64,000 nucleotides of DNA. Origin: Candidatus Omnitrophota bacterium (GTDB lineage Bacteria; Omnitrophota; Gorgyraeia; Zapsychrales; JANLHA01). The stretch lies in NCBI GenBank assembly GCA_963662715.1, contig OY759724.1, positions 1,754,662 to 1,818,661 of the forward strand. The letters run 5' to 3'. Below are positions 1 to 14,300 of the stretch, piece after piece. The translations under genes and the position numbers were made by a program. Under the pieces are notes generated by a model. It did no database searches and was not told the DNA's origin. It was given only the letters and a program-made list of their open reading frames with translations. How positions within the stretch are numbered: the first letter of the stretch is position 1; each line of letters opens with the position of its first letter.

Positions 1-1
1 A

Positions 2-256
2 GTGCAAAATGGTTTTGTTGTTTCAGATAAACCGGATATAGAAATTAGAATAACAGAGTTTAGTTTGGTAAATAAGGAGATTATTTCATTAACATTTGAT
101 ATGAGATCAGATGATACAATTTATAGAACGACACAATACCGTCCAAAGGTTGGACCAGGATATTATCAAGGTGTTTCTTATTTTAGGGCAACCCCAGGAA
201 TAGGGAAAGCTACAGATATAATTTTAGTTAGTATAATGCGTAGAATTAAACGATAA
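2..256 (+). CDS. hypothetical cassette protein, 5'-partial (runs off window start)
   Basis: Open frame from position 2, with no ATG at its start. Followed by an attC at 282-357. Confidence 0.35.
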   Translation: MQNGFVVSDKPDIEIRITEFSLVNKEIISLTFDMRSDDTIYRTTQYRPKVGPGYYQGVSYFRATPGIGKATDIILVSIMRRIKR

Positions 257-281
257 ATATGATAACTTAAAATTAAAATAA

Positions 282-357
282 TCTAACCAGTCAATCCACC
301 GGATCTGATTACGCACCTGACGGCGCTCCATCAGTCCGGTGATTTCCGGCGTTAGGT
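282..357 (+). repeat. integron attC site
   Basis: Begins atcTAACcag and ends ggcGTTAGGTg (GTTRRRY). GC-rich imperfect palindrome: ccggatctgatt...tcagtccggtgat. Confidence 0.65.
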
Positions 358-364
358 GTAATAA

Positions 365-922
365 ATGAAAAAAGAAATCGCACTAATTATATTAGCTTTA
401 ACATTAAGTAGCTGTGCCACAACTGGATTAAGTCTATCTAAAGATCAGGATTTAGCTGCAAAAGGAGACGCAGGAGGTCTAAATAATATGGGTAGCAGAT
501 ATCAGTTTGGAGATGGTGTTCCCCAAAATTATGACAAAGCAGTAATGTATTATCAAAAGGCTGTAGATGAAGGTCTGTCTCTTGCAAAGTCAAATTTAGG
601 ATATATGTATGATCTGGGGTTGGGGGTTGTAGAAAATAATGATAAAGCCATATCTTTGTACACGGAGGCGGCAAATGATGGATGTCCTAATGGCATGGTT
701 AATTTAGCAATAATGTATGCAAATGGTGATAACATTGAGCAGTCTTTTGAAAAGGCCTACTTTTGGTTAGAGATAGCTAGGTTTTATACCCAAAGGGAAT
801 CGAATATGCAAATTAAATGGAGAGCTCGAGGTTTACGAGATCAAGTAATTACAATGCTTAACTCTGAACAAATTAAAAGCATTAACAAAATGGCGCATGA
901 TTGGATAGAGGAAAACAGGTAA
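365..922 (+). CDS. Sel1-like repeat lipoprotein (cassette-encoded)
   Basis: Signal peptide plus lipobox LTLSSC. Repeated ~36-aa units of Sel1/TPR-like type (e.g. NLGYMYDLGLGVVENNDKAISLY and MVNLAIMYANG). Confidence 0.55.
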   Translation: MKKEIALIILALTLSSCATTGLSLSKDQDLAAKGDAGGLNNMGSRYQFGDGVPQNYDKAVMYYQKAVDEGLSLAKSNLGYMYDLGLGVVENNDKAISLYTEAANDGCPNGMVNLAIMYANGDNIEQSFEKAYFWLEIARFYTQRESNMQIKWRARGLRDQVITMLNSEQIKSINKMAHDWIEENR

Positions 923-952
923 ATCATATTAAAATTATAATAATTCAATAAA

Positions 953-1036
953 CACCTAACAACCGCATTCACGCGGACGCCTCGCACGCCGCAAAAAGCA
1001 GCGGCGGCTCGGCATCGGTGATGCGCAGGCGTTGTC
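953..1036 (+). repeat. integron attC site
   Basis: Begins caccTAACaaccg and ends ggcGTTGTCTgg. GC-rich palindromic arms. Confidence 0.55.
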
Positions 1037-1278
1037 TGGCTGGAGAGATTGGTGGCGGGAAATTTTACATGAGAAGCGGAGTGGCGTTTGCGTTTAAGAA
1101 ATTTGTTGTTGGTGACGAAATACAAGATGAGGATTCCAGTCAGAAATTCGAAGTGTCGTTGGAGGCGGGTGGCATCACAAAAGAGAAGAGATAAATAAAA
1201 TTGGGTTCATATTTTGAACATTGTTATTAGGAAGCATGACCCCAATTTTGGGAATGGATTTGGTTCAGCAAACAAAGC

Positions 1279-1356
1279 GTACAACAAATCACTTCAGCGG
1301 TCGCAGCTCCGGCAGCTTCGCCGCCTGCGCACGACCGCTGAGTTCTCACGTTATTT
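1279..1356 (+). repeat. integron attC site
   Basis: Begins gtaCAACAAatcacttcagcgg and ends ccgctgagttctcacGTTATTT. Same family as the attCs at 12358 and 12797 (shared core gccgcctgcgcacg.c.gctgagtt). Confidence 0.65.
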
Positions 1357-1367
1357 TTTGAAAAATT

Positions 1368-1742
1368 ATGAATAAACTTCCAGTCATAAAAGGTGAAAAG
1401 AACTATTTTCCAACAAAAGCTTTATGTCCTATCTGTAAAAAGAATAAGGTTCTAGAGCCTCATTCTATGGCAATAATTAGCGGTGGTGCTTTATTAATGA
1501 ATCGCAAGGATGATTCAGGAGGACCTTCAGGTAATTTAGAAAGCTATTTAAATTTAAGTTGGCACGGGGCACATGATGGAGGAGAAGGCGAAGACCGAGA
1601 AATTGGATTGATTATGGATATTGCACAAGATGTCAAAGGTGGGCAATTTGATTTGTATTTTTGTTCTACATCATGTTTGCGAGAATTTTTAAATTCTTGT
1701 GTTGATGAACTTGAAAAGAGAATAAGAAAAGAAAAAAAATAA
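1368..1742 (+). CDS. hypothetical Cys-rich cassette protein
   Basis: 124-aa ORF with CPIC...CSTSC cysteine pairs. Its TAA stop overlaps the start of the downstream attC (TAACAAGTCA). Confidence 0.45.
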   Translation: MNKLPVIKGEKNYFPTKALCPICKKNKVLEPHSMAIISGGALLMNRKDDSGGPSGNLESYLNLSWHGAHDGGEGEDREIGLIMDIAQDVKGGQFDLYFCSTSCLREFLNSCVDELEKRIRKEKK

Positions 1743-1749
1743 CAAGTCA

Positions 1750-3000
1750 TCCATGAAAACAGTCATCTGGTCAAGCATAAAATAGAAAGGCCAAATCATC
1801 CATTCGCGCTATATTCCCCAAAAGGACTTATGCGCACAATAGCGTATTATGACAGGGCGTGCCAATCACTACAACGGCCTTAAATATGCCAGAGTTGTTA
1901 ACAGCATCACCCATTTATACTGACCGATATTTATACTCACAGTTGTTTTTCAAAACAGCAAAAACAGATTTTAACAGCTTATGAGCAACAGCAACTATAG
2001 CGACACCGTAATCTTTTTTAGTTCGAATCTTCTGAAAATGAGTTTGTAAATATATATCACGGCGCACAGCGGTTTGAGCCGCTTCGACAAAAGCAGTGCG
2101 TAAGTATTTATTGCCATCTTTAGTAATAGGGCCTGAATAATAGCTTTGACCTGATTGATGGACACGAGGAACAATGCCGGCGTAACGGGCAAGTTTATGC
2201 GCATTCTTAAAGCGGGAGATGTCACCGATTTCAGCCAGGATGACATGAGCAAGAATAACCCCTATACCAGGGACAGTGTAGAGTAACCGAGCCTTAGAAT
2301 CGACTTTGATGTTCAGACGGAGACGAGAATCGATTTTGTAAATATGCCGGGAGAGAATATCGATAAAGGAGAGATAATCGGCAATCATGGAAGAATAAGG
2401 TTGCCGTAAGGATAATTGATTTAAGAAGAGTTTGCCGGAAACACCGAAGAGGTCGCTGAAAGAATGCTGAATACCCTGATAATCAAGGATAGCATGAATA
2501 CGATTTTTGAGGCTAGTGCGAATGGCGATCAAACGGTGGCGATACCGCATCAAAGCACGAGCATCACGATGAAAGCGGGAAACACGGTAAGCTTTGGGCA
2601 AGAGATCGGCTCTCAAGAGGTCAGCTAAAACAGAAGCAGAGATTTTATCGGTTTTAATGCGTTGTTCGGCAATAGCCTTAGTTCGCGCGGTATGAGCGAG
2701 AGAAACATCTAAGCCGGCCTCTTCAAGCAAGTCACCGAGCCAAAGGTCAAAGCCAGAGGCTTCCAGTGCGACAGAAGAGTTATGAGGAAGGGCTTTAAAA
2801 TAATTTTTCATAGCATCTTTCTGGAAGTGATATAATTTTGTTTGATCGATGCGGTTGCCATTCTGATCTTTAACGACAACATACGAATACTTTTTGTGTT
2901 GATCGATTCCGATGTAATACATACGTGCCTCCTTTCTGGAAGGTTGTGGTTTTTGGCTTAAAATCATTATACGCCTTCCAGAGGCACGTTTTCATACTAT
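1750..3000 (-). mobile_element. IS110-family insertion sequence (IS1111-attC-like), copy 1, inserted in an attC site
   Basis: A 1251-bp segment identical to 4585-4665 plus 6970-8143. It splits an attC between aacaagtca and (t)cactacagcgg. No obvious terminal inverted repeats; subterminal palindrome ctggaaggttgtgg...ccttccag. Carries a DEDD transposase. Confidence 0.8.
1915..2967 (-). CDS. IS110 family transposase (DEDD)
   Basis: 350 aa. N-terminal YYIGIDQHKK motif and C-terminal AGIVPRVHQSGQS motif are typical of IS110/IS1111 transposases. Identical copy at 7058-8110. Confidence 0.9.
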   Translation of the reverse strand: MILSQKPQPSRKEARMYYIGIDQHKKYSYVVVKDQNGNRIDQTKLYHFQKDAMKNYFKALPHNSSVALEASGFDLWLGDLLEEAGLDVSLAHTARTKAIAEQRIKTDKISASVLADLLRADLLPKAYRVSRFHRDARALMRYRHRLIAIRTSLKNRIHAILDYQGIQHSFSDLFGVSGKLFLNQLSLRQPYSSMIADYLSFIDILSRHIYKIDSRLRLNIKVDSKARLLYTVPGIGVILAHVILAEIGDISRFKNAHKLARYAGIVPRVHQSGQSYYSGPITKDGNKYLRTAFVEAAQTAVRRDIYLQTHFQKIRTKKDYGVAIVAVAHKLLKSVFAVLKNNCEYKYRSV

Positions 3001-3065
3001 CACTACAGCGGAGCCCCTCGCCACCTTCGGCAGACTCGGGACCCCGCTGAGTTCTCACGTTATAA
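3001..3065 (+). repeat. integron attC site, right portion (left 9 bp at 1741-1749; split by IS110 copy 1)
   Basis: cactacagcggagcccctcgccaccttcggcagactcgggaccccgctgagttctcacGTTATAA. Homologous to the intact attCs at 9339 and 10611. Confidence 0.7.
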
Positions 3066-3083
3066 ACAAAAATTAAAGAAAAA

Positions 3084-3761
3084 ATGTTTAAATTCAATTT
3101 CGATTTACTAAAAAAATCAAAAAATGTTCTATCCCAATATAAAAATATTTATTGGATTATCGGGGGAGCATGTTCTGGTAAATCAACCATATGTAAAACA
3201 ATTGCAAAACAAAAAAAGGCACATTTATACGATATGGATGAATATATATTTAGTAAATATATGAGCCGTTATACAAAAAAAAGACATCCTGCAAGTAAAA
3301 CATGGTTTTCGTCAAAGAACTCTCTAGATTGGGTATTATCTTTATCTTGGAAAGATTTTGATCAACTAAATAAAGCAGCCAATGCAGAATACCTGGATTT
3401 ATTTTCTGAAGATATGAAAAAGTATTCCTCTGATGATTTAATATTTGTTGATGGTGGCATCAGTTACCCTTCTGTACTAGCAAAAGCTTTTCCAATTAAG
3501 AATATTGTCTGTTTATATATTCCACCAACTCAAAGTAACATGTTATGGAACAATACTAAAGAAAGAAAACCAATGAAGGATATGATCCTAGATCTACCTC
3601 AAGGTAGAAAGAAATGGGAAAAATTCTTATTCTGTGACAAGAAGATAGCAGAAATCAGCTTGAGAGAATCTAAAAAACACAATATAAAGATATTTCGTAG
3701 AAATAATAATGTATCAATAAAACAATTATCGAAAAAAATTTTAAATTATTTTGACCTTTAA
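3084..3761 (+). CDS. P-loop NTPase / kinase-like ATP-binding protein (cassette)
   Basis: Walker A motif IIGGACSGKST near the N-terminus. 225 aa, AT-rich. Confidence 0.55.
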   Translation: MFKFNFDLLKKSKNVLSQYKNIYWIIGGACSGKSTICKTIAKQKKAHLYDMDEYIFSKYMSRYTKKRHPASKTWFSSKNSLDWVLSLSWKDFDQLNKAANAEYLDLFSEDMKKYSSDDLIFVDGGISYPSVLAKAFPIKNIVCLYIPPTQSNMLWNNTKERKPMKDMILDLPQGRKKWEKFLFCDKKIAEISLRESKKHNIKIFRRNNNVSIKQLSKKILNYFDL

Positions 3762-3770
3762 CTAAGTTTA

Positions 3771-3852
3771 TAACAACTCATTCCACCCGACCGTATTCGC
3801 GGCTTCGCCGCTCATCCGGCGGGTGAACTCGGGCTAGAAATGGGTTGAATTA
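3771..3852 (+). repeat. integron attC site
   Basis: Begins tATAACaactcattcc and ends gaaatgGGTTGAAT (GTTRRRY). GC-rich arms gcggcttcgccgc. Confidence 0.65.
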
Positions 3853-3898
3853 TACGTATAATTATGGTATACTCTATACGTATAAAGGAGGTATTAAA

Positions 3899-4147
3899 AT
3901 GGTAACAAAATTAACATTAGCTTTAGATGAAGCTGTGGTTAGAAAAGCAAAACAATATGCGAAAAAACAAAAGCTTAGCCTGTCAAAATTAGTTGAATTT
4001 TATTTCTCATCATTAGTATCTGATAATTATTCGGAACAATATAACATGCCGCCCATAACAGCAGAACTTGCAGGTATGGTCAAATCTAAATTGTTCAAAA
4101 GTGACAAGGATTTATTAACAGATACCTTGATAGAGAAATATGTATGA
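3899..4147 (+). CDS. type II antitoxin (VapB-like, ribbon-helix-helix-type), cassette-encoded
   Basis: Small 83-aa protein (MVTKLTLALDEAVVRKAKQYAKKQKLSLSKLVEFYF). It overlaps the downstream PIN-domain gene by 4 bp (ATGA). Start chosen at the internal ATG after a GGAGG-like RBS. Confidence 0.5.
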   Translation: MVTKLTLALDEAVVRKAKQYAKKQKLSLSKLVEFYFSSLVSDNYSEQYNMPPITAELAGMVKSKLFKSDKDLLTDTLIEKYV

Positions 4148-4563
4148 AAAATAAAATATTTATTGATACAGACATTTTTTTGGACACAATTCTTGATAGA
4201 AAACCGCATTCGAATTATTCAAATAGAATAATAAGCCTTTGTGAACAAAATGAAATTCAAGGATTTACATCTAGTCTTGTTATTGCAAACATTTATTACA
4301 TCTTAAATAAGTTGTCGAGCCACAACAAAGCCCTTCAAGCAATTAATAAGATTCGAGCTATAATTAATATCCTTCCCTTTACTGATAAAGAAATTGGTGA
4401 ATCAATTAATGCCGATTTCCAAGACTTCGAAGACGGCGTTCAGTATTTCATTGCGATTAACAATAAGGTAGACAGAATAATTACACGAAATGTTAAAGAT
4501 TTTAAAAAGGCCTCAATAGGGATATTGACTCCTAAAGAGTTCCTGCAATCAATAAATACGTAA
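4144..4563 (+). CDS. PIN-domain toxin (VapC-like)
   Basis: 139 aa. N-terminal IFIDTDIFLD acidic motif typical of the PIN fold. Translationally coupled to the upstream small gene. Confidence 0.6.
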   Translation: MKNKIFIDTDIFLDTILDRKPHSNYSNRIISLCEQNEIQGFTSSLVIANIYYILNKLSSHNKALQAINKIRAIINILPFTDKEIGESINADFQDFEDGVQYFIAINNKVDRIITRNVKDFKKASIGILTPKEFLQSINT

Positions 4564-4679
4564 TTATTAATGCATAACAAGTCATCCATGAAAACAGTCA
4601 TCTGGTCAAGCATAAAATAGAAAGGCCAAATCATCCATTCGCGCTATATTCCCCAAAAGGACTTATGTAATGACCCTAG

Positions 4680-5447
4680 TTAAGCAAGGATTTTTTTGTG
4701 TAGATCGAGTTCTTTGTTAATCCATCTTTTGTAAAACTCTTCAGGCGTAGCGAAGAATAATGCCTGATGAGGGAAATCGGTGTTGTAATCGTTGATCCAA
4801 CGCTTGAAGTCATCTTGAAGATCAAATGGGTTGTCCCATTCATTGATCCAAATGAAATCTTCTTTGATTCTGCGGATGACGCGTTCGGTGTCAGCATTGC
4901 CTTTGGGGTTGGACCAGGTTGAGAAGATCTGCTTGATGCCGGCCAGTGAACAATTAAGCCTGAAGCGCCCGCTGGTGGGCTGACAGCCATTGTCCGAGAT
5001 CAGGTGCAGGTCATGATTCAGTGTGTCTTTGATGCCGTTTGGGAATCGGTTGTTGATGGCCATTTCCAGGGCATCCAGCCAGTCATCAGTCTTTGACTGG
5101 ATGTTGAGGCTATAGCCGATAATTTCTTTGGTATACCAGTCTAGGACGATGGTCAGATAGAACCAGCCCCAGGTCGCCAGTTTGATTTTTGTCATATCGA
5201 TACCCCAGAATTGATTGGGGTGAGAAGCTCGTGGTTTCCGGCGGAGGTTGCCACGCTTGGCCTTCAAGCGATCGTTGGGTTGAACCGTTAATTGATTTTC
5301 TTGCATGAGGCGTTGGACACAATTTTTGCCAATTTTGTAATGTTTACGGTTGTTTAAATAGGCCCAGACTGAACGGTATCCCCAGAGGGGATGTTGCTTT
5401 TTAATTTGTCGGATTTTGACTAAATGTTTTTGGTCTTGTTCGATACG
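4680..5447 (-). pseudogene. IS3 orfB of the outer copy, separated from its own orfA by the inner insertion
   Basis: Identical to orfB at 5466-6257 but lacking the first ~6 codons, which continue at 6602 onward. Confidence 0.7.
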
Positions 5448-5465
5448 CTTTTGTAATGACCCTAG

Positions 5466-6257
5466 TTAAGCAAGGATTTTTTTGTGTAGATCGAGTTCTT
5501 TGTTAATCCATCTTTTGTAAAACTCTTCAGGCGTAGCGAAGAATAATGCCTGATGAGGGAAATCGGTGTTGTAATCGTTGATCCAACGCTTGAAGTCATC
5601 TTGAAGATCAAATGGGTTGTCCCATTCATTGATCCAAATGAAATCTTCTTTGATTCTGCGGATGACGCGTTCGGTGTCAGCATTGCCTTTGGGGTTGGAC
5701 CAGGTTGAGAAGATCTGCTTGATGCCGGCCAGTGAACAATTAAGCCTGAAGCGCCCGCTGGTGGGCTGACAGCCATTGTCCGAGATCAGGTGCAGGTCAT
5801 GATTCAGTGTGTCTTTGATGCCGTTTGGGAATCGGTTGTTGATGGCCATTTCCAGGGCATCCAGCCAGTCATCAGTCTTTGACTGGATGTTGAGGCTATA
5901 GCCGATAATTTCTTTGGTATACCAGTCTAGGACGATGGTCAGATAGAACCAGCCCCAGGTCGCCAGTTTGATTTTTGTCATATCGATACCCCAGAATTGA
6001 TTGGGGTGAGAAGCTCGTGGTTTCCGGCGGAGGTTGCCACGCTTGGCCTTCAAGCGATCGTTGGGTTGAACCGTTAATTGATTTTCTTGCATGAGGCGTT
6101 GGACACAATTTTTGCCAATTTTGTAATGTTTACGGTTGTTTAAATAGGCCCAGACTGAACGGTATCCCCAGAGGGGATGTTGCTTTTTAATTTGTCGGAT
6201 TTTGACTAAATGTTTTTGGTCTTGTTCGATACGCTTTAGAGAACGGCGTCTTTTCAT
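5466..6257 (-). CDS. IS3 family transposase OrfB (DDE integrase core)
   Basis: 263 aa. Matches the rve-type DDE region (WGIDMTKIK...LISDNGCQ...). Overlaps orfA by 4 bp. Confidence 0.85.
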   Translation of the reverse strand: MKRRRSLKRIEQDQKHLVKIRQIKKQHPLWGYRSVWAYLNNRKHYKIGKNCVQRLMQENQLTVQPNDRLKAKRGNLRRKPRASHPNQFWGIDMTKIKLATWGWFYLTIVLDWYTKEIIGYSLNIQSKTDDWLDALEMAINNRFPNGIKDTLNHDLHLISDNGCQPTSGRFRLNCSLAGIKQIFSTWSNPKGNADTERVIRRIKEDFIWINEWDNPFDLQDDFKRWINDYNTDFPHQALFFATPEEFYKRWINKELDLHKKILA

Positions 6258-6559
6258 AACTCGTACTCGTTTTTTTTTAGTTCAACGGTCAAGTCGCCGA
6301 TGATGCGTTTGAGTTTGGCGTTTTCTTTTTCAAGACGTTGCTCTTTCTGGGACTGTTGTTTGATGTCAAAGGCCATATGGCATTCTTTGAGGAACTGGTC
6401 GCGCCATTTGTAATATTGGGTTTGGCCAATTTGGTATTTGTTACAAAGTTTACTGATGTCGATTTTCCCGCTGAGGCCTTCAAGCACGATTTGGGTCTTT
6501 TGTTGGCTGGTCCATTGGCGTTTTTTCATGGGAATTGGGCTCCTTTCCTTGGAACTCAA
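6254..6559 (-). CDS. IS3 family transposase OrfA (HTH)
   Basis: 101 aa. HTH followed by a leucine-zipper-like C-terminus, typical of IS3 OrfA. Confidence 0.85.
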   Translation of the reverse strand: MSSKERSPIPMKKRQWTSQQKTQIVLEGLSGKIDISKLCNKYQIGQTQYYKWRDQFLKECHMAFDIKQQSQKEQRLEKENAKLKRIIGDLTVELKKNEYEL

Positions 6560-6621
6560 TTCTACACCATTTGTTTAAATTTGTTAACTAGGGTCACTAT
6601 ACTTTAGAGAACGGCGTCTTT

Positions 6622-6927
6622 TCATAACTCGTACTCGTTTTTTTTTAGTTCAACGGTCAAGTCGCCGATGATGCGTTTGAGTTTGGCGTTTTCTTTTTCA
6701 AGACGTTGCTCTTTCTGGGACTGTTGTTTGATGTCAAAGGCCATATGGCATTCTTTGAGGAACTGGTCGCGCCATTTGTAATATTGGGTTTGGCCAATTT
6801 GGTATTTGTTACAAAGTTTACTGATGTCGATTTTCCCGCTGAGGCCTTCAAGCACGATTTGGGTCTTTTGTTGGCTGGTCCATTGGCGTTTTTTCATGGG
6901 AATTGGGCTCCTTTCCTTGGAACTCAA
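6622..6927 (-). CDS. IS3 family transposase OrfA (outer copy)
   Basis: Identical to the OrfA at 6254-6559. Confidence 0.8.
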   Translation of the reverse strand: MSSKERSPIPMKKRQWTSQQKTQIVLEGLSGKIDISKLCNKYQIGQTQYYKWRDQFLKECHMAFDIKQQSQKEQRLEKENAKLKRIIGDLTVELKKNEYEL

Positions 6928-7057
6928 TTCTACACCATTTGTTTAAATTTGTTAACTAGGGTCACTATACTTATGCGCACAATAGCGTATTATGACAGGG
7001 CGTGCCAATCACTACAACGGCCTTAAATATGCCAGAGTTGTTAACAGCATCACCCAT

Positions 7058-8110
7058 TTATACTGACCGATATTTATACTCACAGTTGTTTTTCAAAACA
7101 GCAAAAACAGATTTTAACAGCTTATGAGCAACAGCAACTATAGCGACACCGTAATCTTTTTTAGTTCGAATCTTCTGAAAATGAGTTTGTAAATATATAT
7201 CACGGCGCACAGCGGTTTGAGCCGCTTCGACAAAAGCAGTGCGTAAGTATTTATTGCCATCTTTAGTAATAGGGCCTGAATAATAGCTTTGACCTGATTG
7301 ATGGACACGAGGAACAATGCCGGCGTAACGGGCAAGTTTATGCGCATTCTTAAAGCGGGAGATGTCACCGATTTCAGCCAGGATGACATGAGCAAGAATA
7401 ACCCCTATACCAGGGACAGTGTAGAGTAACCGAGCCTTAGAATCGACTTTGATGTTCAGACGGAGACGAGAATCGATTTTGTAAATATGCCGGGAGAGAA
7501 TATCGATAAAGGAGAGATAATCGGCAATCATGGAAGAATAAGGTTGCCGTAAGGATAATTGATTTAAGAAGAGTTTGCCGGAAACACCGAAGAGGTCGCT
7601 GAAAGAATGCTGAATACCCTGATAATCAAGGATAGCATGAATACGATTTTTGAGGCTAGTGCGAATGGCGATCAAACGGTGGCGATACCGCATCAAAGCA
7701 CGAGCATCACGATGAAAGCGGGAAACACGGTAAGCTTTGGGCAAGAGATCGGCTCTCAAGAGGTCAGCTAAAACAGAAGCAGAGATTTTATCGGTTTTAA
7801 TGCGTTGTTCGGCAATAGCCTTAGTTCGCGCGGTATGAGCGAGAGAAACATCTAAGCCGGCCTCTTCAAGCAAGTCACCGAGCCAAAGGTCAAAGCCAGA
7901 GGCTTCCAGTGCGACAGAAGAGTTATGAGGAAGGGCTTTAAAATAATTTTTCATAGCATCTTTCTGGAAGTGATATAATTTTGTTTGATCGATGCGGTTG
8001 CCATTCTGATCTTTAACGACAACATACGAATACTTTTTGTGTTGATCGATTCCGATGTAATACATACGTGCCTCCTTTCTGGAAGGTTGTGGTTTTTGGC
8101 TTAAAATCAT
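7058..8110 (-). CDS. IS110 family transposase (DEDD), copy 2
   Basis: Identical to the protein at 1915-2967. Confidence 0.9.
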   Translation of the reverse strand: MILSQKPQPSRKEARMYYIGIDQHKKYSYVVVKDQNGNRIDQTKLYHFQKDAMKNYFKALPHNSSVALEASGFDLWLGDLLEEAGLDVSLAHTARTKAIAEQRIKTDKISASVLADLLRADLLPKAYRVSRFHRDARALMRYRHRLIAIRTSLKNRIHAILDYQGIQHSFSDLFGVSGKLFLNQLSLRQPYSSMIADYLSFIDILSRHIYKIDSRLRLNIKVDSKARLLYTVPGIGVILAHVILAEIGDISRFKNAHKLARYAGIVPRVHQSGQSYYSGPITKDGNKYLRTAFVEAAQTAVRRDIYLQTHFQKIRTKKDYGVAIVAVAHKLLKSVFAVLKNNCEYKYRSV

Positions 8111-8143
8111 TATACGCCTTCCAGAGGCACGTTTTCATACTAT

Positions 8144-8207
8144 CACTACAGCGGAGCCCCTCGCCACCTTCGGCAGACTCGGGACCCCGCTGAGTTCGTT
8201 GTTGGCC
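8144..8207 (+). repeat. integron attC site, right portion (left 9 bp at 4576-4584; split by IS110 copy 2)
   Basis: cactacagcggagcccctcgccaccttcggcagactcgggaccccgctgagttcGTTGTTGGCC. Confidence 0.7.
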
Positions 8208-8210
8208 TAA

Positions 8211-8948
8211 ATGGAGAATATCATGGTTGAAGATGTGGTCGTAGAACCGATGACAGAGGAATCCATCCTGTGGCGTTGTCTTCATGGTGGGCCGATTGTG
8301 CTCGACACTATTGATCAATCCCCTCTTGGAGGCTCGATACCGTGGGTGTGCTATCGGGATCGAAACACCTCACTCTTGGTGAAACTCACCAGAACCTATG
8401 GAGCTTGCGCTATCTTAGCACGCGATGGCGAGCAGATTGTAGGCCACCTTCGTTTCTATCCCAAGTTTGTCTGTGACAAGGAGGGGGCAGGTGGTCTTTG
8501 CCTTCAGCAAGATTCTCCTACAGGTCCAATTGAAGACTTTGCCGACAGCAACTTTCCAGAACCTATACAGATAGAAGACAAGACACTTGTCGTTCATTGC
8601 CTTATGACAGGAAGCTCCCAGCAGAAAGAGAATCCGTACCAGCGGGAGGGCATCGGCACACGCATGGTCAAAGCTTTGATTGAGTGGGCCAGAGTAAACA
8701 GCTGGGAACGAATTGAGGCGAACTCCTTTGAGGACCTTTCCATTATTTACGATACTACAGGAAGTGCTGGCCATACATTCTGGGAGAAATTGGGATTTCA
8801 CCTTGTTGATCGGCATCCACACCCGGAGCTGCAGGATCGTAGCCAGTTCGGCGGGTTTATCAAGACGCTCGAAGAACAGGCAGAGACTATCGGAATTCCC
8901 GTTGAGCGAGCAAGAGATCGACTCGTTATGCGTCTCGATCTGTTATGA
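8211..8948 (+). CDS. GNAT family N-acetyltransferase (cassette)
   Basis: Acetyl-CoA binding-like motif QREGIGTRMVKALIEWAR and C-terminal GFHLVD. 245 aa. Confidence 0.6.
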   Translation: MENIMVEDVVVEPMTEESILWRCLHGGPIVLDTIDQSPLGGSIPWVCYRDRNTSLLVKLTRTYGACAILARDGEQIVGHLRFYPKFVCDKEGAGGLCLQQDSPTGPIEDFADSNFPEPIQIEDKTLVVHCLMTGSSQQKENPYQREGIGTRMVKALIEWARVNSWERIEANSFEDLSIIYDTTGSAGHTFWEKLGFHLVDRHPHPELQDRSQFGGFIKTLEEQAETIGIPVERARDRLVMRLDLL

Positions 8949-8962
8949 TATAAACTGGATAT

Positions 8963-9031
8963 GCCAACAACGGGCTTGACAAGGAAGCGCGAAAAAGGCA
9001 GCCGCGCTCCTGTCAGCCCGAGCGTTGTGCG
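8963..9031 (+). repeat. integron attC site
   Basis: Begins TGCCAACaacgggc and ends cccgagcGTTGTGC. Palindromic arms gcgcgaaaaaggcagccgcgc. Confidence 0.55.
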
Positions 9032-9039
9032 GTAAGATA

Positions 9040-9282
9040 ATGAAAATGAAGAATATCATCAATAAACTTCTTGGCCCCAAATGTGCAAAATGCAAGAAAG
9101 CAGCACTTAAATTATTTGAATCCCCATTCACGGGAGAAACATTATTTCAAGCTCATAAATGTCCACAATGTGGTTCATTATATTGTGATGATTGTTATCC
9201 GTCTCTGCCTTGGACATCATATCCGATGGGATATTCTAAATGTCCAGATTGTGATTTACAGCTAGAAAGATATTTAAAATAG
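9040..9282 (+). CDS. zinc-ribbon hypothetical protein (cassette)
   Basis: CAKC...CPQC...CDDC...CPDC cysteine pairs. 80 aa. Confidence 0.4.
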   Translation: MKMKNIINKLLGPKCAKCKKAALKLFESPFTGETLFQAHKCPQCGSLYCDDCYPSLPWTSYPMGYSKCPDCDLQLERYLK

Positions 9283-9338
9283 AAGAAATAGATAAAAAAT
9301 AAAAGAATATAGATTAAGCAAACTTTGCGCACAACAAG

Positions 9339-9416
9339 TCACTACAGCGAGGGCGCTCGGCCACCTTTGGCAGGCTCGGGACCCCGATGAGTTCCTTGCG
9401 TTAGACGAAAAAATAT
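9339..9416 (+). repeat. integron attC site (intact member of the family targeted by IS110)
   Basis: acAACAAGTCACTACAGCGagggcgctcggccacctttggcaggctcgggaccccgatgagttccttgcGTTAGAC. Confidence 0.75.
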
Positions 9417-9439
9417 TATAATTATGATATAATGACCTT

Positions 9440-9628
9440 ATGAAAATTAATAAACAAATAGTAACATTAAAGAAAATCACTCAACAGGACGACTGTTTTG
9501 TCGACACTTCTCCTCAAGAAAGGGTATTATTTGTTTGGGAGCTAACGGCAGAATTGTGGTCTTTGAAAGGCAAGGAACATGTTGAACGAAGACTACAAAG
9601 AGATATTACAAATCTTATTAAAAAATGA
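9440..9628 (+). CDS. small hypothetical protein, possible partner of the downstream nucleotidyltransferase
   Basis: 62-aa ORF overlapping the next gene's start. Sits in the same cassette. Confidence 0.3.
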   Translation: MKINKQIVTLKKITQQDDCFVDTSPQERVLFVWELTAELWSLKGKEHVERRLQRDITNLIKK

Positions 9629-10022
9629 TGTTCAATTTCTTGTTGTGGGCGCATATGCAATGGCTGCTTATGGATATCCTAGGGCAACAGGTGATTTTGA
9701 TATTTGGGTAGAATCCTCAATAGAAAATTCAGAAAATATTTATAAATCATTGCTTGAATTTGGAACTCCATTGACAGGAATAACTAAAGATACATTTTCA
9801 GAAGATGGGCTTGTTTTTCAGATCGGAGTTGCGCCCAGAAGAATAGATATTATAACAGGTATTGATGGGGTTAATTTTGAGGATGCGTTTAAGGATAAAG
9901 AAGGTATTGAGGTCGAGGGTTTAAAATTGCCTTTTATATCGAAAGAGAACTTAATAAAAAATAAAAAGGCTACAGGCAGAGAAAAAGATAGATTAGATAT
10001 TAAATATTTAGAAGATAAATAA
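9579..10022 (+). CDS. nucleotidyltransferase-fold protein (MNT/DUF6036-like)
   Basis: GAYAMAAYG...GDFDIW motif (G-S/x then DxD) of minimal nucleotidyltransferases. 147 aa. Confidence 0.5.
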   Translation: MLNEDYKEILQILLKNDVQFLVVGAYAMAAYGYPRATGDFDIWVESSIENSENIYKSLLEFGTPLTGITKDTFSEDGLVFQIGVAPRRIDIITGIDGVNFEDAFKDKEGIEVEGLKLPFISKENLIKNKKATGREKDRLDIKYLEDK

Positions 10023-10024
10023 AT

Positions 10025-10102
10025 CGTCTAACAAGGCAATTAAGCGGCACAAGCTCGCACCTTTTGGCGCTCGCTTACGCCGTTTATTTTTTTGCGTTAC
10101 TC
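10025..10102 (+). repeat. integron attC site
   Basis: Begins cgTCTAACaagg and ends tttgcGTTACTC. Arms gcacaagctcgcacc/ggcgctcgcttacgcc. Confidence 0.55.
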
Positions 10103-10127
10103 TGAGCGTATTAATCGGGAAAATACT

Positions 10128-10604
10128 ATGGCTTCAACTGATAATGAATTTGTGATTGGTGCAACAATAGTTAAGTATGGCCTTTTTGAGTCTGCCGTTG
10201 CGGAGAAAAAGAAGAATGAAGGACTTCCATACTCATCATACGAAGAAAAAGCAACAATAATGCATTTACAAACCACAGATATTATTAAGGGAAAGATCGG
10301 GATAGAATTTGGTATATCATATGTTGTTAATTCAGTAAATCAGATTCATCTTATGGCTGAGAATCAATCTATTGAAATAAAAACAGTAGTGATATATCCG
10401 AGTCCGGGTATCAGAGATGTTGAAAATAATAAGATTTATCATGATTCAATAACATATAGAGATGTTCCTATGGATGCTGAAGTGTATGAAGGTTATTTTA
10501 TCGGTGGTGAGACAGATATTGTGGCCGGAGAATGGACATTTCAAATATGGCATAACGATCACAAGTTGGCAGAAAAAATATTTGATATTACAAAAGATAA
10601 ATAA
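10128..10604 (+). CDS. hypothetical cassette protein
   Basis: 158-aa ORF from an internal ATG after the attC. No recognisable motifs. Confidence 0.4.
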   Translation: MASTDNEFVIGATIVKYGLFESAVAEKKKNEGLPYSSYEEKATIMHLQTTDIIKGKIGIEFGISYVVNSVNQIHLMAENQSIEIKTVVIYPSPGIRDVENNKIYHDSITYRDVPMDAEVYEGYFIGGETDIVAGEWTFQIWHNDHKLAEKIFDITKDK

Positions 10605-10610
10605 GACAAC

Positions 10611-10677
10611 ATCTAACAAGTCACTCTGGCGGCACCGTTGGCAGGCTCGGGACCCCGCTGAGTTCGTTGCGTTGGAT
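10611..10677 (+). repeat. integron attC site
   Basis: ATCTAACAAGTCACTctggcggcaccgttggcaggctcgggaccccgctgagttcgttgcGTTGGAT. Confidence 0.75.
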
Positions 10678-10688
10678 TGGAAAAGAGA

Positions 10689-11171
10689 ATGTATTGTCCA
10701 GATGATGGTTTGAAATTAAATCGACTTGAAAGAAATGGCATTGAAATTTATGAATGCACCGAATGCGGGGGGCTTTGGACTCCCGTCAGAGCGATTGATT
10801 ATAAAAATACTTTAATTGACCATAAAGGTAGCAGTGATTTGTTGTGCCTTTCCTGTCAAGAACCAATGAATGAAAAAATATACAGAAGTTATCAAATAAT
10901 TGTATGTGAAGACTGTCAATATGCCTGGATTGGCGGGACAATCATTAAATCCTTATTTGTTAAAACTGATAAAGCAGAAATAAGAGCAAATGATAATTGT
11001 TTAACAGATGCTTTGGGGGCATTTAAAGAAGGACTGCCTCAATGGGTGATGGAGATCTTTGTGAATTTGCCGGATAAAGAAACATTGAATGCTCTGGCAG
11101 AAATTGCAGGAGAAGCGGGAGAAACGGTCGTGGAATTTTTTGCGTTTTTGTTTTCTGATATATCTAATTAA
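10689..11171 (+). CDS. zinc-ribbon hypothetical protein (cassette)
   Basis: CPDDG..CTECGG and CLSC...CEDC cysteine pairs. ATG at 10689. The TAA stop overlaps the attC start TAACAAG. Confidence 0.45.
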   Translation: MYCPDDGLKLNRLERNGIEIYECTECGGLWTPVRAIDYKNTLIDHKGSSDLLCLSCQEPMNEKIYRSYQIIVCEDCQYAWIGGTIIKSLFVKTDKAEIRANDNCLTDALGAFKEGLPQWVMEIFVNLPDKETLNALAEIAGEAGETVVEFFAFLFSDISN

Positions 11172-11257
11172 CAAGACATCCAACCATTCCCTGCGGCGTG
11201 GGCCCGGCCCCCTGCGGCTTCGTCAGGGGCCGATGAGTTCCTGGCGCTATGTTTAAA
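11167..11257 (+). repeat. integron attC site
   Basis: Begins atTAACAAGacatcc and ends cgtcaggggccgatgagttcctggcgctatGTTTAAA. Same family as the attCs at 13821 and 16066. Confidence 0.65.
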
Positions 11258-11265
11258 ATTCAAAA

Positions 11266-11643
11266 ATGACTAGCTTTAATAGAACCAAATGGATTTTGTT
11301 AATATCAATCGCGACCTTATTTGTAGGTGTCGTGCCTGTATATTTGAACAGAAGCATTGCTTCAAAATATCCTGTGTGGGAATCGGGTTGTTTTCAATAT
11401 CAAAATAACCACAAAATTGAGCCCGTATCTGAATACTGCGATTTACCAGCAGGCGAGAGGCGTTTATTATTGTTGGGAGAATTAATAAAAAGAGAGTGTT
11501 CCGAGTTATTATTTTACGCATATATATTTTTTGGTATAGCCGCTGTGGTTTTAAGGAAATTTAAATTTTTCTTTTTCCCGGTAATAATACATTTAATTCT
11601 TTGCTTGGTGATTTTATTAATATTTGGAAACATAGGAATTTGA
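11266..11643 (+). CDS. hypothetical membrane protein (cassette)
   Basis: Three hydrophobic helices. 125 aa. Confidence 0.4.
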   Translation: MTSFNRTKWILLISIATLFVGVVPVYLNRSIASKYPVWESGCFQYQNNHKIEPVSEYCDLPAGERRLLLLGELIKRECSELLFYAYIFFGIAAVVLRKFKFFFFPVIIHLILCLVILLIFGNIGI

Positions 11644-11660
11644 TTTTAGAAAAATTAAAA

Positions 11661-11721
11661 ACATAACAACTCCCTGTGGCGGCCCTTGCTCCGGTGGCTG
11701 CGCCGTTGAGTATGGTTTGTT
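11661..11721 (+). repeat. integron attC site
   Basis: Begins ACATAACaactccctgtggcggccc and ends ggctgcgccgttgagtatgGTTTGTT. Confidence 0.55.
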
Positions 11722-11731
11722 GTGCCAGAAA

Positions 11732-12355
11732 ATGAAAGAAAAAACATTTAAGCTTTTAACATTTTCCTCGCTTGCTATAACAGTCATCTCTTCTGCATTT
11801 TTGATCCATCGCATAAGATATGCTTTCTGGGGGATCAAAATAATTCCCATCCGAAATATCCTGAATGATAAAGAAATCCTTTTTATTAATTGCTGTCTTG
11901 ATTTTATCCTTTCTTTGCCTTTGTCGATGCTTGTCTCTTATTTTCTCTTGCTGAAAATTGATTCCTTAATTCCTGAAACTTGTCAGGATTTTCTTAAGCG
12001 TTTTCAGCGGCATACTCCTTACGGCGTAGTTAAGAGAAACGACCCGGAACTATTTAAAATTGCCGGTTCAAAATCTCCAGCCAGAGGTGTGCTTGAAATA
12101 TCGGCCGGATTAATTGTTTTGGCTGTGTTTATCGCGTGTGAAGCTTTTGCTTACTACGCAAGATATGAGATCCTCGGGATACCTTTTATTTCAGCCGGAG
12201 CCGGTGTGCAGCCAGCAATCAATTCATTAATCAATTTTATAATATCGATACCATTTTTGGGTGTAGTGGCTTTTTTGTTGATAAAACTTATTAAGTTGTT
12301 CGAAAAAATTTTAGGGGAAAGTATTATTGATTTTTATTCAACCATATTACGATAA
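11732..12355 (+). CDS. hypothetical polytopic membrane protein (cassette)
   Basis: Multiple hydrophobic segments. Internal ATG at 11732 used as start. Confidence 0.4.
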   Translation: MKEKTFKLLTFSSLAITVISSAFLIHRIRYAFWGIKIIPIRNILNDKEILFINCCLDFILSLPLSMLVSYFLLLKIDSLIPETCQDFLKRFQRHTPYGVVKRNDPELFKIAGSKSPARGVLEISAGLIVLAVFIACEAFAYYARYEILGIPFISAGAGVQPAINSLINFIISIPFLGVVAFLLIKLIKLFEKILGESIIDFYSTILR

Positions 12356-12357
12356 AA

Positions 12358-12431
12358 GCGCAACATCAGGTTCAGCATGGCGCGGGGAAACTTCGCCGCC
12401 TGCGCATGGCCGCTGAGTTGTCGCGTTACGT
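12358..12431 (+). repeat. integron attC site
   Basis: GCGCAACatcaggttcagcatggcgcggggaaacttcgccgcctgcgcatggccgctgagttgtcgcGTTACGT. Confidence 0.7.
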
Positions 12432-12472
12432 GAAAGATGGAATCTCCCCGTTAAAAAATTGAGGTCACCAGA

Positions 12473-12742
12473 ATGAGAAAAAAAGAAAGCAATCCAAAAG
12501 AGGACAAACTTAAAGGGACTGTAAATGCTGGGTACAAGATCATTGCCGTTAAAGAGGCCCCGATGAAGTACCCCATCCCACTTGTCCCTGCGGAAAGTAT
12601 TGTCTTAGCAAAACGCGTGAACAATTCGGCCCCAACCAATTACGTGGTATGGGAGTATGTTGGCCATGGCGAATTCAGGTCTGGTATTTACGAAGATAAT
12701 AGGGCGGAAGCAGAGAATATTTTTAATTCACAAACAAAATAA
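12473..12742 (+). CDS. hypothetical cassette protein
   Basis: 89-aa ORF with a GGTCACC-like RBS region upstream. Confidence 0.4.
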   Translation: MRKKESNPKEDKLKGTVNAGYKIIAVKEAPMKYPIPLVPAESIVLAKRVNNSAPTNYVVWEYVGHGEFRSGIYEDNRAEAENIFNSQTK

Positions 12743-12796
12743 GACTGTATGTATCTCAAATATTCGTTGAACATGTGGAATAAATATAACAAAAAC

Positions 12797-12863
12797 ACGC
12801 AACAACCTGCTCCTGCAGCCACTGCTCCGGCCTGCGCACGGCTGCTGAGTTCTTACGTTAGGA
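12797..12863 (+). repeat. integron attC site
   Basis: ACGCAACaacctgctcctgcagccactgctccggcctgcgcacggctgctgagttcttacGTTAGGA. Confidence 0.7.
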
Positions 12864-12905
12864 GAAGAGATTGAGTGTATATCGGAATTTAATGATGCAA
12901 GTGGC

Positions 12906-13262
12906 ATGTGCACGTTCACTGTCACCGGTAAGGTCCGTAGTCCCGAGGATGGGTATGAACTTCAATGCCGCGCAAACCAGGTCTCTATCCAGCATGAATG
13001 CCGTTTCTTTCTCATCGACATGAGACAGGCCGAGATAATAACTAAAACGATGCCTGCATTCGAAACGGCAAAAGTGAAGGATGAGTTCCGCCAGGAACTC
13101 CGAAAGCATAAGACGGCAGTGCTTTATTCAAGACTTGCAGAACATGAGCGCTTCTTTGAAACTGTTGCGGTGAACAGTGGTTTCACGCTCAAAGTGTTTG
13201 ACAGGTATGATGAAGCCGTTGAGTGGCTTGCAAAAGATTGTATCTCGGTCAACAGTGTGTGA
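12906..13262 (+). CDS. hypothetical protein, paralog of 13913-14296 (STAS/SpoIIAA-like?)
   Basis: Shares a C-terminal block with 13913-14296: ...AVLYS....E..FFE.VAVN.GF.L.VFD..DE...WL. Confidence 0.45.
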   Translation: MCTFTVTGKVRSPEDGYELQCRANQVSIQHECRFFLIDMRQAEIITKTMPAFETAKVKDEFRQELRKHKTAVLYSRLAEHERFFETVAVNSGFTLKVFDRYDEAVEWLAKDCISVNSV

Positions 13263-13269
13263 AAAAAAC

Positions 13270-13331
13270 GCCTCACAAAATTTGTGCTGGAACGCCGGCA
13301 AGCCGGCTTCGGTGAGCCGCGCCGTTTTGGA
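13270..13331 (+). repeat. probable integron attC site (degenerate)
   Basis: Begins cctCACAAAATTTGTGctgg and ends ccgcgccGTTTTGG. Arms gccggcaagccggc. Confidence 0.45.
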
Positions 13332-13405
13332 ATAAAGACGGAAAAGATGCATAAAAATAAAATTTTGCGGACGAAGTCCAGAATAAGACAAGAAAGGGAC
13401 ATGTT

Positions 13406-13792
13406 ATGACAAAAATACCGGAAGAAGTTAAAGTCGCAATAGATAAAACAAGCCCTATATGTGTGGCCACAGTGAATAATGAATATGTGCCGAATATAAT
13501 ATATGTCACTTTTTTAAAATATATAAATGACACGACAGTGGTTATAGCAGATAATAAACTTGTAAAAACAAAAAATAATATATTATCTAATTCCAACCTT
13601 TCCTTTGTTGTCCTTGATCCTGAAACAAAAAAGTCATATCAATTAAAAGGGGAAACGGAATATATACAAGAAGGGGAGAAATATCAAGATGTTTTTAACT
13701 GGGTGCAAGAAAGAAGACCGGATCTCCGCCCCAAAGGTGCTTTGTATGTAACTATCAACGAAATATTCTCCGGAGACAAGAAAATAGCCTGA
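13406..13792 (+). CDS. pyridoxamine 5'-phosphate oxidase-like (split-barrel, FMN-binding family) protein
   Basis: N-terminal pattern ...SPICVATVNNEYVPNIIYVTF...VVIADN...K... resembles the PNPOx-like/general stress protein 26 family. 128 aa. Confidence 0.45.
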   Translation: MTKIPEEVKVAIDKTSPICVATVNNEYVPNIIYVTFLKYINDTTVVIADNKLVKTKNNILSNSNLSFVVLDPETKKSYQLKGETEYIQEGEKYQDVFNWVQERRPDLRPKGALYVTINEIFSGDKKIA

Positions 13793-13820
13793 GAATTGGC
13801 TTGAAGTTTTGAAATTGGAT

Positions 13821-13904
13821 CAAAACACATGAGAAGTCGCTCTGTCGTCCCTGTCTCGTCACGTTGCGGCTTCGTCAGGGGCCGATGAGCTCCTTGCGTT
13901 AAGA
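13821..13904 (+). repeat. integron attC site
   Basis: Ends ...ggcttcgtcaggggccgatgagctccttgcGTTAAGA. Family of the attC at 11167. Confidence 0.6.
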
Positions 13905-13912
13905 GAATTAGC

Positions 13913-14296
13913 ATGCACTACACATATGAGTTAGACAACGACAGTGGCATTTGTATCGTTCGCGTGACGGACACGTTCAAGCGTCCGGAGGATGCTGCGG
14001 AGATGCAGCAACTTGTGTGCAAGCTCTATGAAGAGACCGGGTGTGGGGCTTTTCTGTTTGACATGCGGAGGGTCGATGTCGTTGCCAGTGTTTTATTCAC
14101 ATATGATACCGTCGTGTTCGAAGCTGCAAAGTTACATGTGCTTCGGAAGCTGAAGGCAGCTGTTTTGTATTCGGAAGTTACCGAAGAGGAATGTTTTTTT
14201 GAAAATGTGGCGGTGAATCGCGGGTTCCCGTTGCGTGTTTTCGACAGTCTTGACGATTCGCTTGACTGGTTAAGCGGGAAGGGTGGGCGCACCTAA
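13913..14296 (+). CDS. hypothetical protein, paralog of 12906-13262
   Basis: Shares ~40% of positions with 12906-13262 over the C-terminal 60 aa (AVLYSEVTEEECFFENVAVNRGFPLRVFDSLDDSLDWL). Confidence 0.45.
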   Translation: MHYTYELDNDSGICIVRVTDTFKRPEDAAEMQQLVCKLYEETGCGAFLFDMRRVDVVASVLFTYDTVVFEAAKLHVLRKLKAAVLYSEVTEEECFFENVAVNRGFPLRVFDSLDDSLDWLSGKGGRT

Positions 14297-14300
14297 AATA

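Follow-up and report, generated by a model that had tools for sequence, protein, structure and literature searches.

The 64,000-nucleotide stretch analysed here (the window; positions 1,754,662 to 1,818,661 of contig OY759724.1, assembly GCA_963662715.1, Candidatus Omnitrophota bacterium) opens within an integron cassette array, in which two copies of a 1251-bp insertion sequence (IS) of the IS110 family each interrupt an attC site. The array belongs to a chromosomal integron, runs past the left edge of the window and holds about 20 attC sites in 16 kb. Family scans of the open reading frames (ORFs) between 14,963 and 20,172, at the right end of the array, returned no integrase, the other large ORFs of the window having been listed but not scanned; the integron integrase gene is presumed to lie to the left of position 1. 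Repeat finding and exact-match extension demonstrated that the two IS copies are 100% identical to each other (exact matches 1739-1832 = 4574-4667 and 1826-3054 = 6969-8197). The array, the occupied attC sites, the two copies and two unoccupied sites of the same attC subfamily are as follows.

1-16145, + strand: integron cassette array, about 20 short ORFs that lack promoters, with an attC (RYYYAAC ... GTTRRRY) behind each, from sequence reading and a list of attC sites
1739-1749, + strand: left arm of the first occupied attC (attC-A), R'' box ATAAC and spacer, ending in core CA at 1748-1749
1750-3000, - strand: IS copy 1, intact, 1251 bp, with its left end (LE) at 3000 and its right end (RE) at 1750
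1915-2922, - strand: transposase coding sequence (CDS) of copy 1, 335 amino acids (aa; MYYIGIDQHK...), with DEDD_Tnp_IS110 and Transposase_20 domains
2638-2640, - strand: codon for Ser95 of the copy 1 transposase (same residue in copy 2)
3001-3065, + strand: right arm of attC-A, core CA at 3001-3002, L'', loop, L', and R' GTTATAA at 3059-3065
4574-4584, + strand: left arm of the second occupied attC (attC-B), ATAACAAGTCA
4585-4665, - strand: RE fragment of IS copy 2, 81 bp, its break falling inside the P5 hairpin of the predicted RNA
6970-8143, - strand: remainder of IS copy 2, the first 4 nt being a duplicated CTTA, with an intact transposase CDS at 7058-8065
8144-8207, + strand: right arm of attC-B, same as attC-A for 54 bp, then its own R' GTTGGCC at 8201-8207
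9327-9406, + strand: unoccupied attC of the same subfamily, AACAAGTCACTACAGCG, with 2 mismatches to a 15-mer derived from the element's guides
10609-10677, + strand: unoccupied attC of the same subfamily, AACAAGTCACTCTGGCG, with 4 mismatches to the same 15-mer

A first-pass annotation of the window, made from the sequence without database searches, had reported two identical 1251-bp copies, the second at 4585-4665 plus 6970-8143. Two such copies are present, but the latter segment includes the 4-bp duplicate CTTA, and the true restart is at 6974. Copy 2 is thus 4585-4665 plus 6974-8143, and it equals copy 1 once the 2304-bp insert 4666-6969 and the CTTA at 6970-6973 are removed. Both copies lie between ...ATAACAAGTCA on the left and CACTACAGCGG... 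on the right, with the transposase ORF read on the - strand, in agreement with the earlier proposal of insertion between aacaagtca and cactacagcgg at one position and in one orientation. Both end motifs are confined to these two loci in the window (0 expected by chance). In comparison with the uninterrupted attC at 9327-9406, insertion adds 1253 bp, that is, 1251 bp plus a repeated CA. The annotation's "no obvious target duplication" is therefore only nearly right, as the 2-nt core dinucleotide stands at both junctions. This core CA, which is TG in transposase orientation, borders both copies on either side, as it does most relatives.

Beyond the element, the two loci stay identical for a further 11 bp (left) and 54 bp (right), and the identity ends within the attC on both sides. 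The R' ends of the two occupied sites differ (TCACGTTATAA versus GTTGTTGGCC), and the upstream ORFs are unrelated, encoding a 124-aa protein with no Pfam hit (copy 1) and a DUF6364/PIN pair (copy 2). A segmental duplication larger than the attC, which the first-pass annotation had named as a possible refutation, was therefore rejected. The GC content of the element is 42.5%, within the range of the window (37-51%). At least one more copy, encoding a 1-aa variant of the transposase (P0001, D304G), is present on the same contig. Since all copies of this element, and likewise of the IS3-family element nested in copy 2, are identical, they point to recent activity of both.

The two targets were restored by removing the element plus one copy of the core, and the bottom strand was folded under DNA parameters. 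Both restored sites fold as canonical attC hairpins (-16.4 and -17.1 kcal/mol, z -4.0 and -3.2) in which R' pairs with R'' and L' pairs with L'', with an extrahelical T and with boxes ATAAC...GTTATAA and ATAAC...GTTGGCC. The identification of both targets as attC sites is thereby upheld. No consensus emerged from RNAalifold when 14 attCs were aligned with MAFFT, and the evidence was consequently taken from the per-site folds. In the transposase sense, the bottom strand has the sequence CCGCTG[T]AG-TG-AC-TTGTTAT. Here the L'' stem ends with the core T, the unpaired spacer starts with the core G, and R'' begins 2 nt further on; mapped against the attC boxes, the insertion point is therefore at the border of L'' stem and spacer, 2 nt from R''. 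The intact target-type attCs that had been claimed at 9339-9416 and 10611-10677 exist, at 9327-9406 and 10609-10677.

The transposase matches PF01548 (E 1e-15) and PF02371 (E 3e-27) in Pfam and scores 229 bits, against a cut-off of 140, with the NCBIfam model NF033542 ("IS110 family RNA-guided transposase"), which confirms the family assignment made at first pass. As is usual for the IS110 family, the element has no long terminal inverted repeats and no classical target site duplication (TSD), and a short core stands at both junctions. In transposase orientation, LE begins ATAGTATGAAAACG... and RE ends ...CTGTTTTCATGGA. The 8-bp subterminal inverted repeat (sTIR) ATGAAAAC is found at 2988-2995 and 1753-1760, which leaves 5 nt to LE and 3 nt to RE; its length is 11-14 bp in L002 and L021 (relatives are cited by locus number), as read from the end sequences. 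The non-coding ends measure 165 nt on the 3' side of the transposase gene versus 78 nt on the 5' side. In the IS1111 subgroup, sTIRs are 7-17 bp (PMC11208160) and a long RE carries the guide RNA (PMC11208160, PMC11187229). The element is of IS1111 type, and the anatomy that this type implies, with sTIRs and a long 3' non-coding end, was found as the earlier assignment would have it.

Relatives were gathered from GTDB genomes and JGI metagenomes, and the ends and flanks were read from each. The close relatives are all in Omnitrophota/Elusimicrobia-type metagenome-assembled genomes (MAGs). Eight of them have enough flanking sequence for the target to be restored (L001, L002, L004, L005, L015, L016, L017 and L019), and all eight restored targets are attC hairpins of the same geometry, with the pattern AATCAGCGG...CCGCTG[N]ATT-G-NN-TTGTTA. 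The P0014 element (64% identity) was found joined to three distinct left halves and two distinct right halves of attC, and hence in at least three attCs; in locus L050 an integron integrase matching TIGR02249 (412 bits, cut-off 265) is one cassette away from it. Among the relatives collected, none of the copies of the attC-programmed clade lay outside an attC. The earlier suggestion that further copies be looked for in attC sites was followed on relatives, where the same attC position is used in 9 of 9 reconstructable cases and in the attCs of the P0014 element.

Several of these loci show further variation. The P0014 loci include the same left half with different right halves (L049 versus L051, L050, L052 and L053; TG-CTTTGTTATGTG versus TG-ACTTGTTAGATG), and the converse is also seen. 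Because left and right attC halves occur in differing combinations, recombination between IS copies apparently reshuffles cassette arrays. In L001 and L005, which are from the same MAG (JAQUKH01), the left core is TG and the right core is CG, and ISKpn4 in L011 has GG at its left junction and TG at its right junction. The first position of the core seems either to be tolerant or to be resolved from a heteroduplex. L001 and L005 also have extra sequence or deletions in the 3' RNA region.

The 3' non-coding end of the window element is predicted to encode a structured RNA with the following parts.

1789-1912, - strand: predicted bridge/seekRNA-like structured RNA, with target-binding domain P1-P3 and donor-binding domain P4-P5
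1892-1901, - strand: target guide 1 (UUAACAACUC), complementary to the right flank G-ACTTGTTA (attC R'' side) with 1 mismatch
1865-1874, - strand: target guide 2 (UUGUAGUGAU), same sense as left flank TGTAG + core TG + LE AT
1795-1804, - strand: donor guide (AAUGGAUGAU), matching the circle junction RE...ATGGA-TG-AT...LE

Guide 2 would pair with the opposite strand, on the L'' side of the attC. The order of the guides, with UUAACAACUC (pairing with the top strand, right flank) preceding UUGUAGUGAU (bottom strand, left flank), is that of IS1111 elements, in which the top-strand guide is 5' of the bottom-strand guide; the order is reversed in IS110 proper (PMC11187229). No Rfam family matches the 3' RNA. 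Its structure was based on co-variation, as the fold of the single sequence is unexceptional. In a 16-sequence alignment, the 22 proposed pairs in four helices are 91% paired and 10 of them carry compensatory changes, while none of 500 shuffles was as good and slid partners were 28-44% paired.

Co-variation of guides with flanks was examined in 10 non-redundant elements (59-68% aa identity) from Omnitrophota-type metagenomes. Left flank and guide agree at 43 of 45 positions (36.3 on shuffling, P=0.002), with flank/guide pairs TGTAG/TGTAG in the window, TGAAG/TGAAG in L001 and TGGAT/TGGAT in six elements. The two nucleotides to the right of the core agree with the guide in 15 of 18 cases (7.9 on shuffling, P=0.0008). 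RE CAT[G/A]GA and donor guide AU[G/A]GA agree in 9/9 elements by permutation test (P=0.008) and in 10/10 by direct reading. The combined permutation P for guide/flank co-variation is 0.0002, in a test that ignores the relatedness of the elements. Within the restored 64-kb window, the two best matches to the guide-derived 15-mer TGTAG-TG-AGTTGTTA are the two occupied attCs, with 1 mismatch each, and the next best are two other attCs with 2 mismatches.

A sister clade (L021-L026, 48-54% identity) has the same ends, core and RNA scaffold, and its guides match its own, different flanks. By inspection of the unfolded sequences, these flanks look unlike attC (L021 TATTT-TG / GCTTTCAA, L022 TAATC-TG / GTGTAATC, L025 GCGCTAATCT). 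In two members of this clade (L023 at 3079-3107 and L024 at 2719-2782), the sequence past RE belongs to a further copy of the element and represents the 3' part of that copy. It begins exactly inside the donor-guide DNA (AATAGA-TG-CATGGC), which mimics the element's own RE-core junction. The donor-guide DNA seems to have been used as an insertion site in these loci, giving tandem, partly nested copies.

An IS1111-attC group, comprising ISPst6, ISKpn4, ISPa21 and relatives, was reportedly described by Tetu & Holmes in 2008 and Post & Hall in 2009. A seekRNA has been shown for this group (Siddiquee et al. 2024, PMC11187229), and the ISKpn4 and ISPa25 transposase sequences were taken from the supplement of that paper. 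Group members are at least 74% mutually identical, and ISPa25 is about 46% identical to the ISKpn4 group (matrix, PMC11187229). The window transposase shares 23% identity with TnpKpn4 over 345 aa, and aligns with TnpPa25 only over a 113-residue C-terminal stretch (31% identity). At such low identities, the element is, as judged by its protein sequence, not a member of the described IS1111-attC clade. The first-pass likening to that subgroup consequently stands for behaviour (same position, same orientation, attC targets) but not for phylogenetic membership. The best match among 72,556 plasmids was 38.6% identical (unnamed Rhizobium plasmid IS110-family transposases, full-length alignment), and the closest named IS found was ISAtu7 (31%, full-length IS110-family alignment). 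No named IS for the window's clade was found among the matches searched.

Despite this distance in sequence, the window element and ISKpn4 share IS1111-type anatomy and a single orientation in attC, in which the transposase gene runs against the cassettes. A plasmid record and an uninterrupted qacL attC were compared to place the insertion point of ISKpn4. Within the class 1 integron intI1-aadB-qacL-ISKpn4 (L011), the transposase of ISKpn4 is antisense to the cassettes and the IS is flanked by ...GGCTTGAA and TGAATTGTTAG, while the empty qacL attC reads GGCTTGAA-TG-AACTGTTAG. As in the window site (CTGTAG-TG-ACTTGTTAT), the core directly adjoins the L'' stem and, on its 3' side, is separated by 2 nt from YTGTTA (R'', bottom strand). 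The layout of the RNA target loop is also alike, with GAUAACAAU..., a hairpin and UUGAA-CG-CU in ISKpn4 and GUUAACAAC... then UGUAG-UG-AU in the window. The two differ in their end sequences (sTIR ATGAAAAC in the window versus ATGGACTCTCCCC in ISKpn4), in the fourth DEDD residue (Ser versus Asp) and in the L''-side guide, which in the window element fits another attC family. The hosts also differ, being Omnitrophota for the window element and Pseudomonas/Enterobacteria for the IS1111-attC group. ISPa25 is likewise described as using the same attC site, with a diverged transposase (PMC11187229).

The bridge RNA recombinases (Durrant et al. 2024, Hiraizumi et al. 2024; PMC11208160, PMC11208158) provide a second comparison, and the profile of the window's clade matches the IS621 structure 8WT6 (E 8e-20). 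Like IS621, the window element has a RuvC-like domain and a Tnp domain with a catalytic Ser, here assigned from sequence, and a predicted two-loop guide RNA whose loops would pair, on either side of a 2-nt core, with the two strands of the target and of the donor. Past the core, two nucleotides of the guide agree with the end of the element and not with the target, in the manner of handshake guides. Unlike in IS621, the RNA is 3' (not 5') of the transposase gene, the sTIRs are long, the core is TG (not CT), and the D105 equivalent is Ser. Group IIC-attC introns reportedly also home to attC in one orientation (PMC3001079), but they are retroelements with a reverse transcriptase and a ribozyme. 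Neither is found in the element, and identity as a group II intron was rejected.

The catalytic residues of IS621 are the DEDD tetrad D11, E60, D102 and D105 together with S241 of the Tnp domain, and mutation of D105 abolishes recombination (PMC11208158). Residues D7, E54, D92 and S257 are conserved in the clade of the window transposase. Where IS621 has D105 (KTDTVDA), the window protein has Ser95 (KTDKISA), and the residue is Ser in every one of the 42 clade members aligned; Asp is kept at this position in more distant relatives, ISAtu7 and ISKpn4. The clade has identical multi-copy elements and signs of recent mobility, and because of this a DEDS active site seems to work in it.

We conclude that the element is a distant member of the known kind of attC-homing, RNA-guided IS of the IS1111 type. 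More specifically, we assign a probability of about 0.85 to an IS1111-type IS110-family element whose guide RNA is programmed for the R''/L'' end of attC. The first-pass annotation had named no mechanism; the evidence points to an RNA-guided (bridge/seekRNA) choice of attC with a 2-nt recombination core. Direct support comes from the identity of the copies, the protein family, the attC nature of the targets, the fixed position and orientation, and the co-variation of guides with flanks and within stems.

With the published mechanism of IS1111/IS110 elements as a guide (seekRNA, PMC11187229; bridge RNA, PMC11208160, PMC11208158), we infer production and binding of the RNA, a circular intermediate, the chemistry and the inactivation of the attC. 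The element would leave as a circle with RE and LE joined across the TG core, and the 3' non-coding end would yield a structured RNA, about 125 nt long, that binds the transposase. One loop of this RNA would contact the attC on both strands: UUAACAA.. would pair with the R'' side, which is conserved, and UGUAG-UG with the L'' side of the attC subfamily in this array. The second loop would pair with the RE-TG-LE junction. Recombination across the core, which borders the L'' stem and is 2 nt from R'', would insert the element one way only, with its transposase antisense to the cassettes, and would leave the core at both junctions. Insertion would part R'' from L''-L'-R' by 1.25 kb and immobilise the cassette, since an attC so separated should no longer fold or serve the integrase. 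Two recent insertions would have hit the two best-matching attCs, and copy 2 would later have been hit by the IS3-family element, which was then hit by itself.

Several points weigh against this interpretation. The RNA is a prediction from sequence, and folding the 3' end as a single sequence gives no gain in stability over shuffled controls (z 0.0). Target guide 1 mismatches the occupied site at one position, and the attC at 9327-9406 is a near-perfect target yet empty. The permutation tests of guides against flanks ignore kinship among the elements. Support for attC use beyond the two copies in the window comes from relatives, and not from the further copy (at least one) in the genome, which encodes P0001. 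Because the fourth Asp, essential in IS621, is Ser in this clade, the chemistry may also differ in detail.

The most serious alternative is that one copy arose by site-specific insertion and the other by copying of IS and attC sequence together, through gene conversion or homologous recombination between cassettes, or through duplication with later cassette replacement. The attC sequence around both copies is 100% identical over 11 + 54 bp, and other members of the attC subfamily in the array differ at many positions, which places this 65-bp identity above the subfamily average; reshuffling mediated by IS copies is moreover seen in the P0014 loci (L049 versus L051). We nevertheless consider such copying unlikely, because the identity ends in the attC on both sides and gives way to different R' ends and upstream ORFs. 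Moreover, the two sites are the window's two best guide matches, as two independent guided insertions would predict, and the relatives show many independent insertions at the same nucleotide.

RNA guidance itself could be dispensed with if the protein recognised the folded attC, as the integron integrase and group IIC-attC introns do, and the RNA segments were coincidental. The target is indeed structured, with the core at the border of stem and spacer, and the unexceptional fold of the single RNA sequence would suit this alternative. However, the guides change with the flanks, including in the sister clade, whose guides match flanks that by inspection are not attC-like; the RNA stems carry compensatory changes; and the seekRNAs of ISKpn4/ISPst6 and of other IS1111 elements are essential and reprogrammable (PMC11187229). 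Recognition of structure without a guide is therefore very improbable. Still harder to credit is horizontal acquisition of a described IS1111-attC element (ISPst6/ISKpn4/ISPa21 or ISPa25) from Proteobacteria. Target, register and orientation are those of ISKpn4, but the transposase is only 23% identical to TnpKpn4 and 31% over 113 aa to TnpPa25, with a best plasmid match below 39%. The close relatives, furthermore, all come from Omnitrophota/Elusimicrobia-type MAGs, and a GC content of 42.5% does not set the element apart from the window.

Guided insertion of an IS1111-type element thus remains the preferred reading, and it widens the range of attC-homing IS, known from Proteobacteria and clinical class 1 integrons, to include sedentary chromosomal integrons in an uncultured phylum. 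The understanding of how such systems work is left unchanged. The clade offers a natural series in which the guides of an IS1111-type bridge RNA co-vary with their targets, attC-programmed elements and retargeted sisters having one scaffold in common, and it is relevant to the mining of compact natural bridge recombinases, including those with an altered catalytic tetrad. Two lineages that are 23% identical and share insertion point and orientation in attC also bear on the freezing and reshuffling of integron arrays. We see even odds that the clade represents a third, deeply separate attC-homing lineage of IS1111 type, which arose in Omnitrophota through reprogramming of its guide loops and converged on exactly the phosphodiester and orientation in attC that the Pseudomonas/clinical IS1111-attC elements use; that all of the clade functions with a DEDS active site in place of DEDD is part of this proposal and is just as evenly balanced. 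If the convergence is real, the R''/L'' junction would be the one "addressable" spot of attC for bridge-RNA recombinases, and parasitism of integrons by IS would be ancient and phylum-spanning.

Copy 2 is interrupted by a nested pair of IS3-family elements, giving three levels of nesting (an IS3 copy in an IS3 copy in the IS110-type copy 2).

4666-6969, - strand: nested IS3-family elements inside copy 2, 2304 bp, identical, 1150 bp each
4666-5451 and 6606-6969, - strand: outer IS3 copy, TSD CTTA
5452-6601, - strand: inner IS3 copy, within the outer copy, TSD CTTT

The IS3 element encodes ORFA (101 aa, HTH_Tnp_1) and ORFB (263 aa, rve) with a -1 frame overlap, gives a match to HTH_21 as well, and scores 173 bits against a cut-off of 160 with NF033516. 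It has terminal inverted repeats, with ends TGTAATGACCCTAGTTAA / TATAGTGACCCTAGTTAA (also read as TGTAATGACCC.../...GGGTCACTATA), and no other copy was found within the window. The point of entry corresponds to position 1830 of copy 1, inside the P5 hairpin between the two donor guides. As this splits P5 and the donor-binding domain, copy 2 is probably unable to make a complete RNA of its own. Copy 1 could supply RNA in trans to the intact transposase of copy 2, by analogy with trans assays of IS1111-type systems (PMC11187229).

The 5' end of the intact copy has features of its own.

2923-3000, - strand: LE and 5' untranslated region (UTR), with promoter-like ATGAAA-18-TATAAT (2995-2966), a hairpin, and a Shine-Dalgarno (SD) sequence AGGAGG at 2928-2933

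The promoter-like sequence matches at 10 of 12 promoter positions. The 5' UTR hairpin (2915-3000, - strand; dG -24.9 kcal/mol, z -4.0) pairs the first bases of the element with the start codon and has the TATAAT -10 box in its loop. With the SD and start codon thus buried, we infer that only transcripts begun inside the element would be translatable. Hairpin arms GTGCCT / AGGCAC were also seen by eye in relative L001. In L002, L003 and L004, joining of RE-TG-LE gives TTGACA-17-TAGTAT with a TG extension, a possible junction promoter of a kind described for IS1111/IS110 elements. The corresponding spacing is 22 nt in the window copy (1750-1774 joined with 2990-3000) and in L005, and a junction promoter is for this reason not claimed for the window copy.

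Cargo of the surrounding cassettes includes DUF6364/PIN (3899-4563), a GNAT acetyltransferase (8211-8948), a Sel1-repeat lipoprotein (365-922), a PNPOx-like protein (13406-13792) and a dual-specificity phosphatase (14963-15556). The DUF6364/PIN toxin-antitoxin pair is the cassette whose attC holds copy 2. Cassettes 12906-13262 and 13913-14296 look paralogous by eye, on the basis of common sequence motifs. Outside the array, 58746-58840 on the + strand is a riboswitch of the c-di-GMP-I class (RF01051, 57.7 bits; gathering score 35), about 1.2 kb upstream of a type IV pilus pilM-like gene at 60044-61096.

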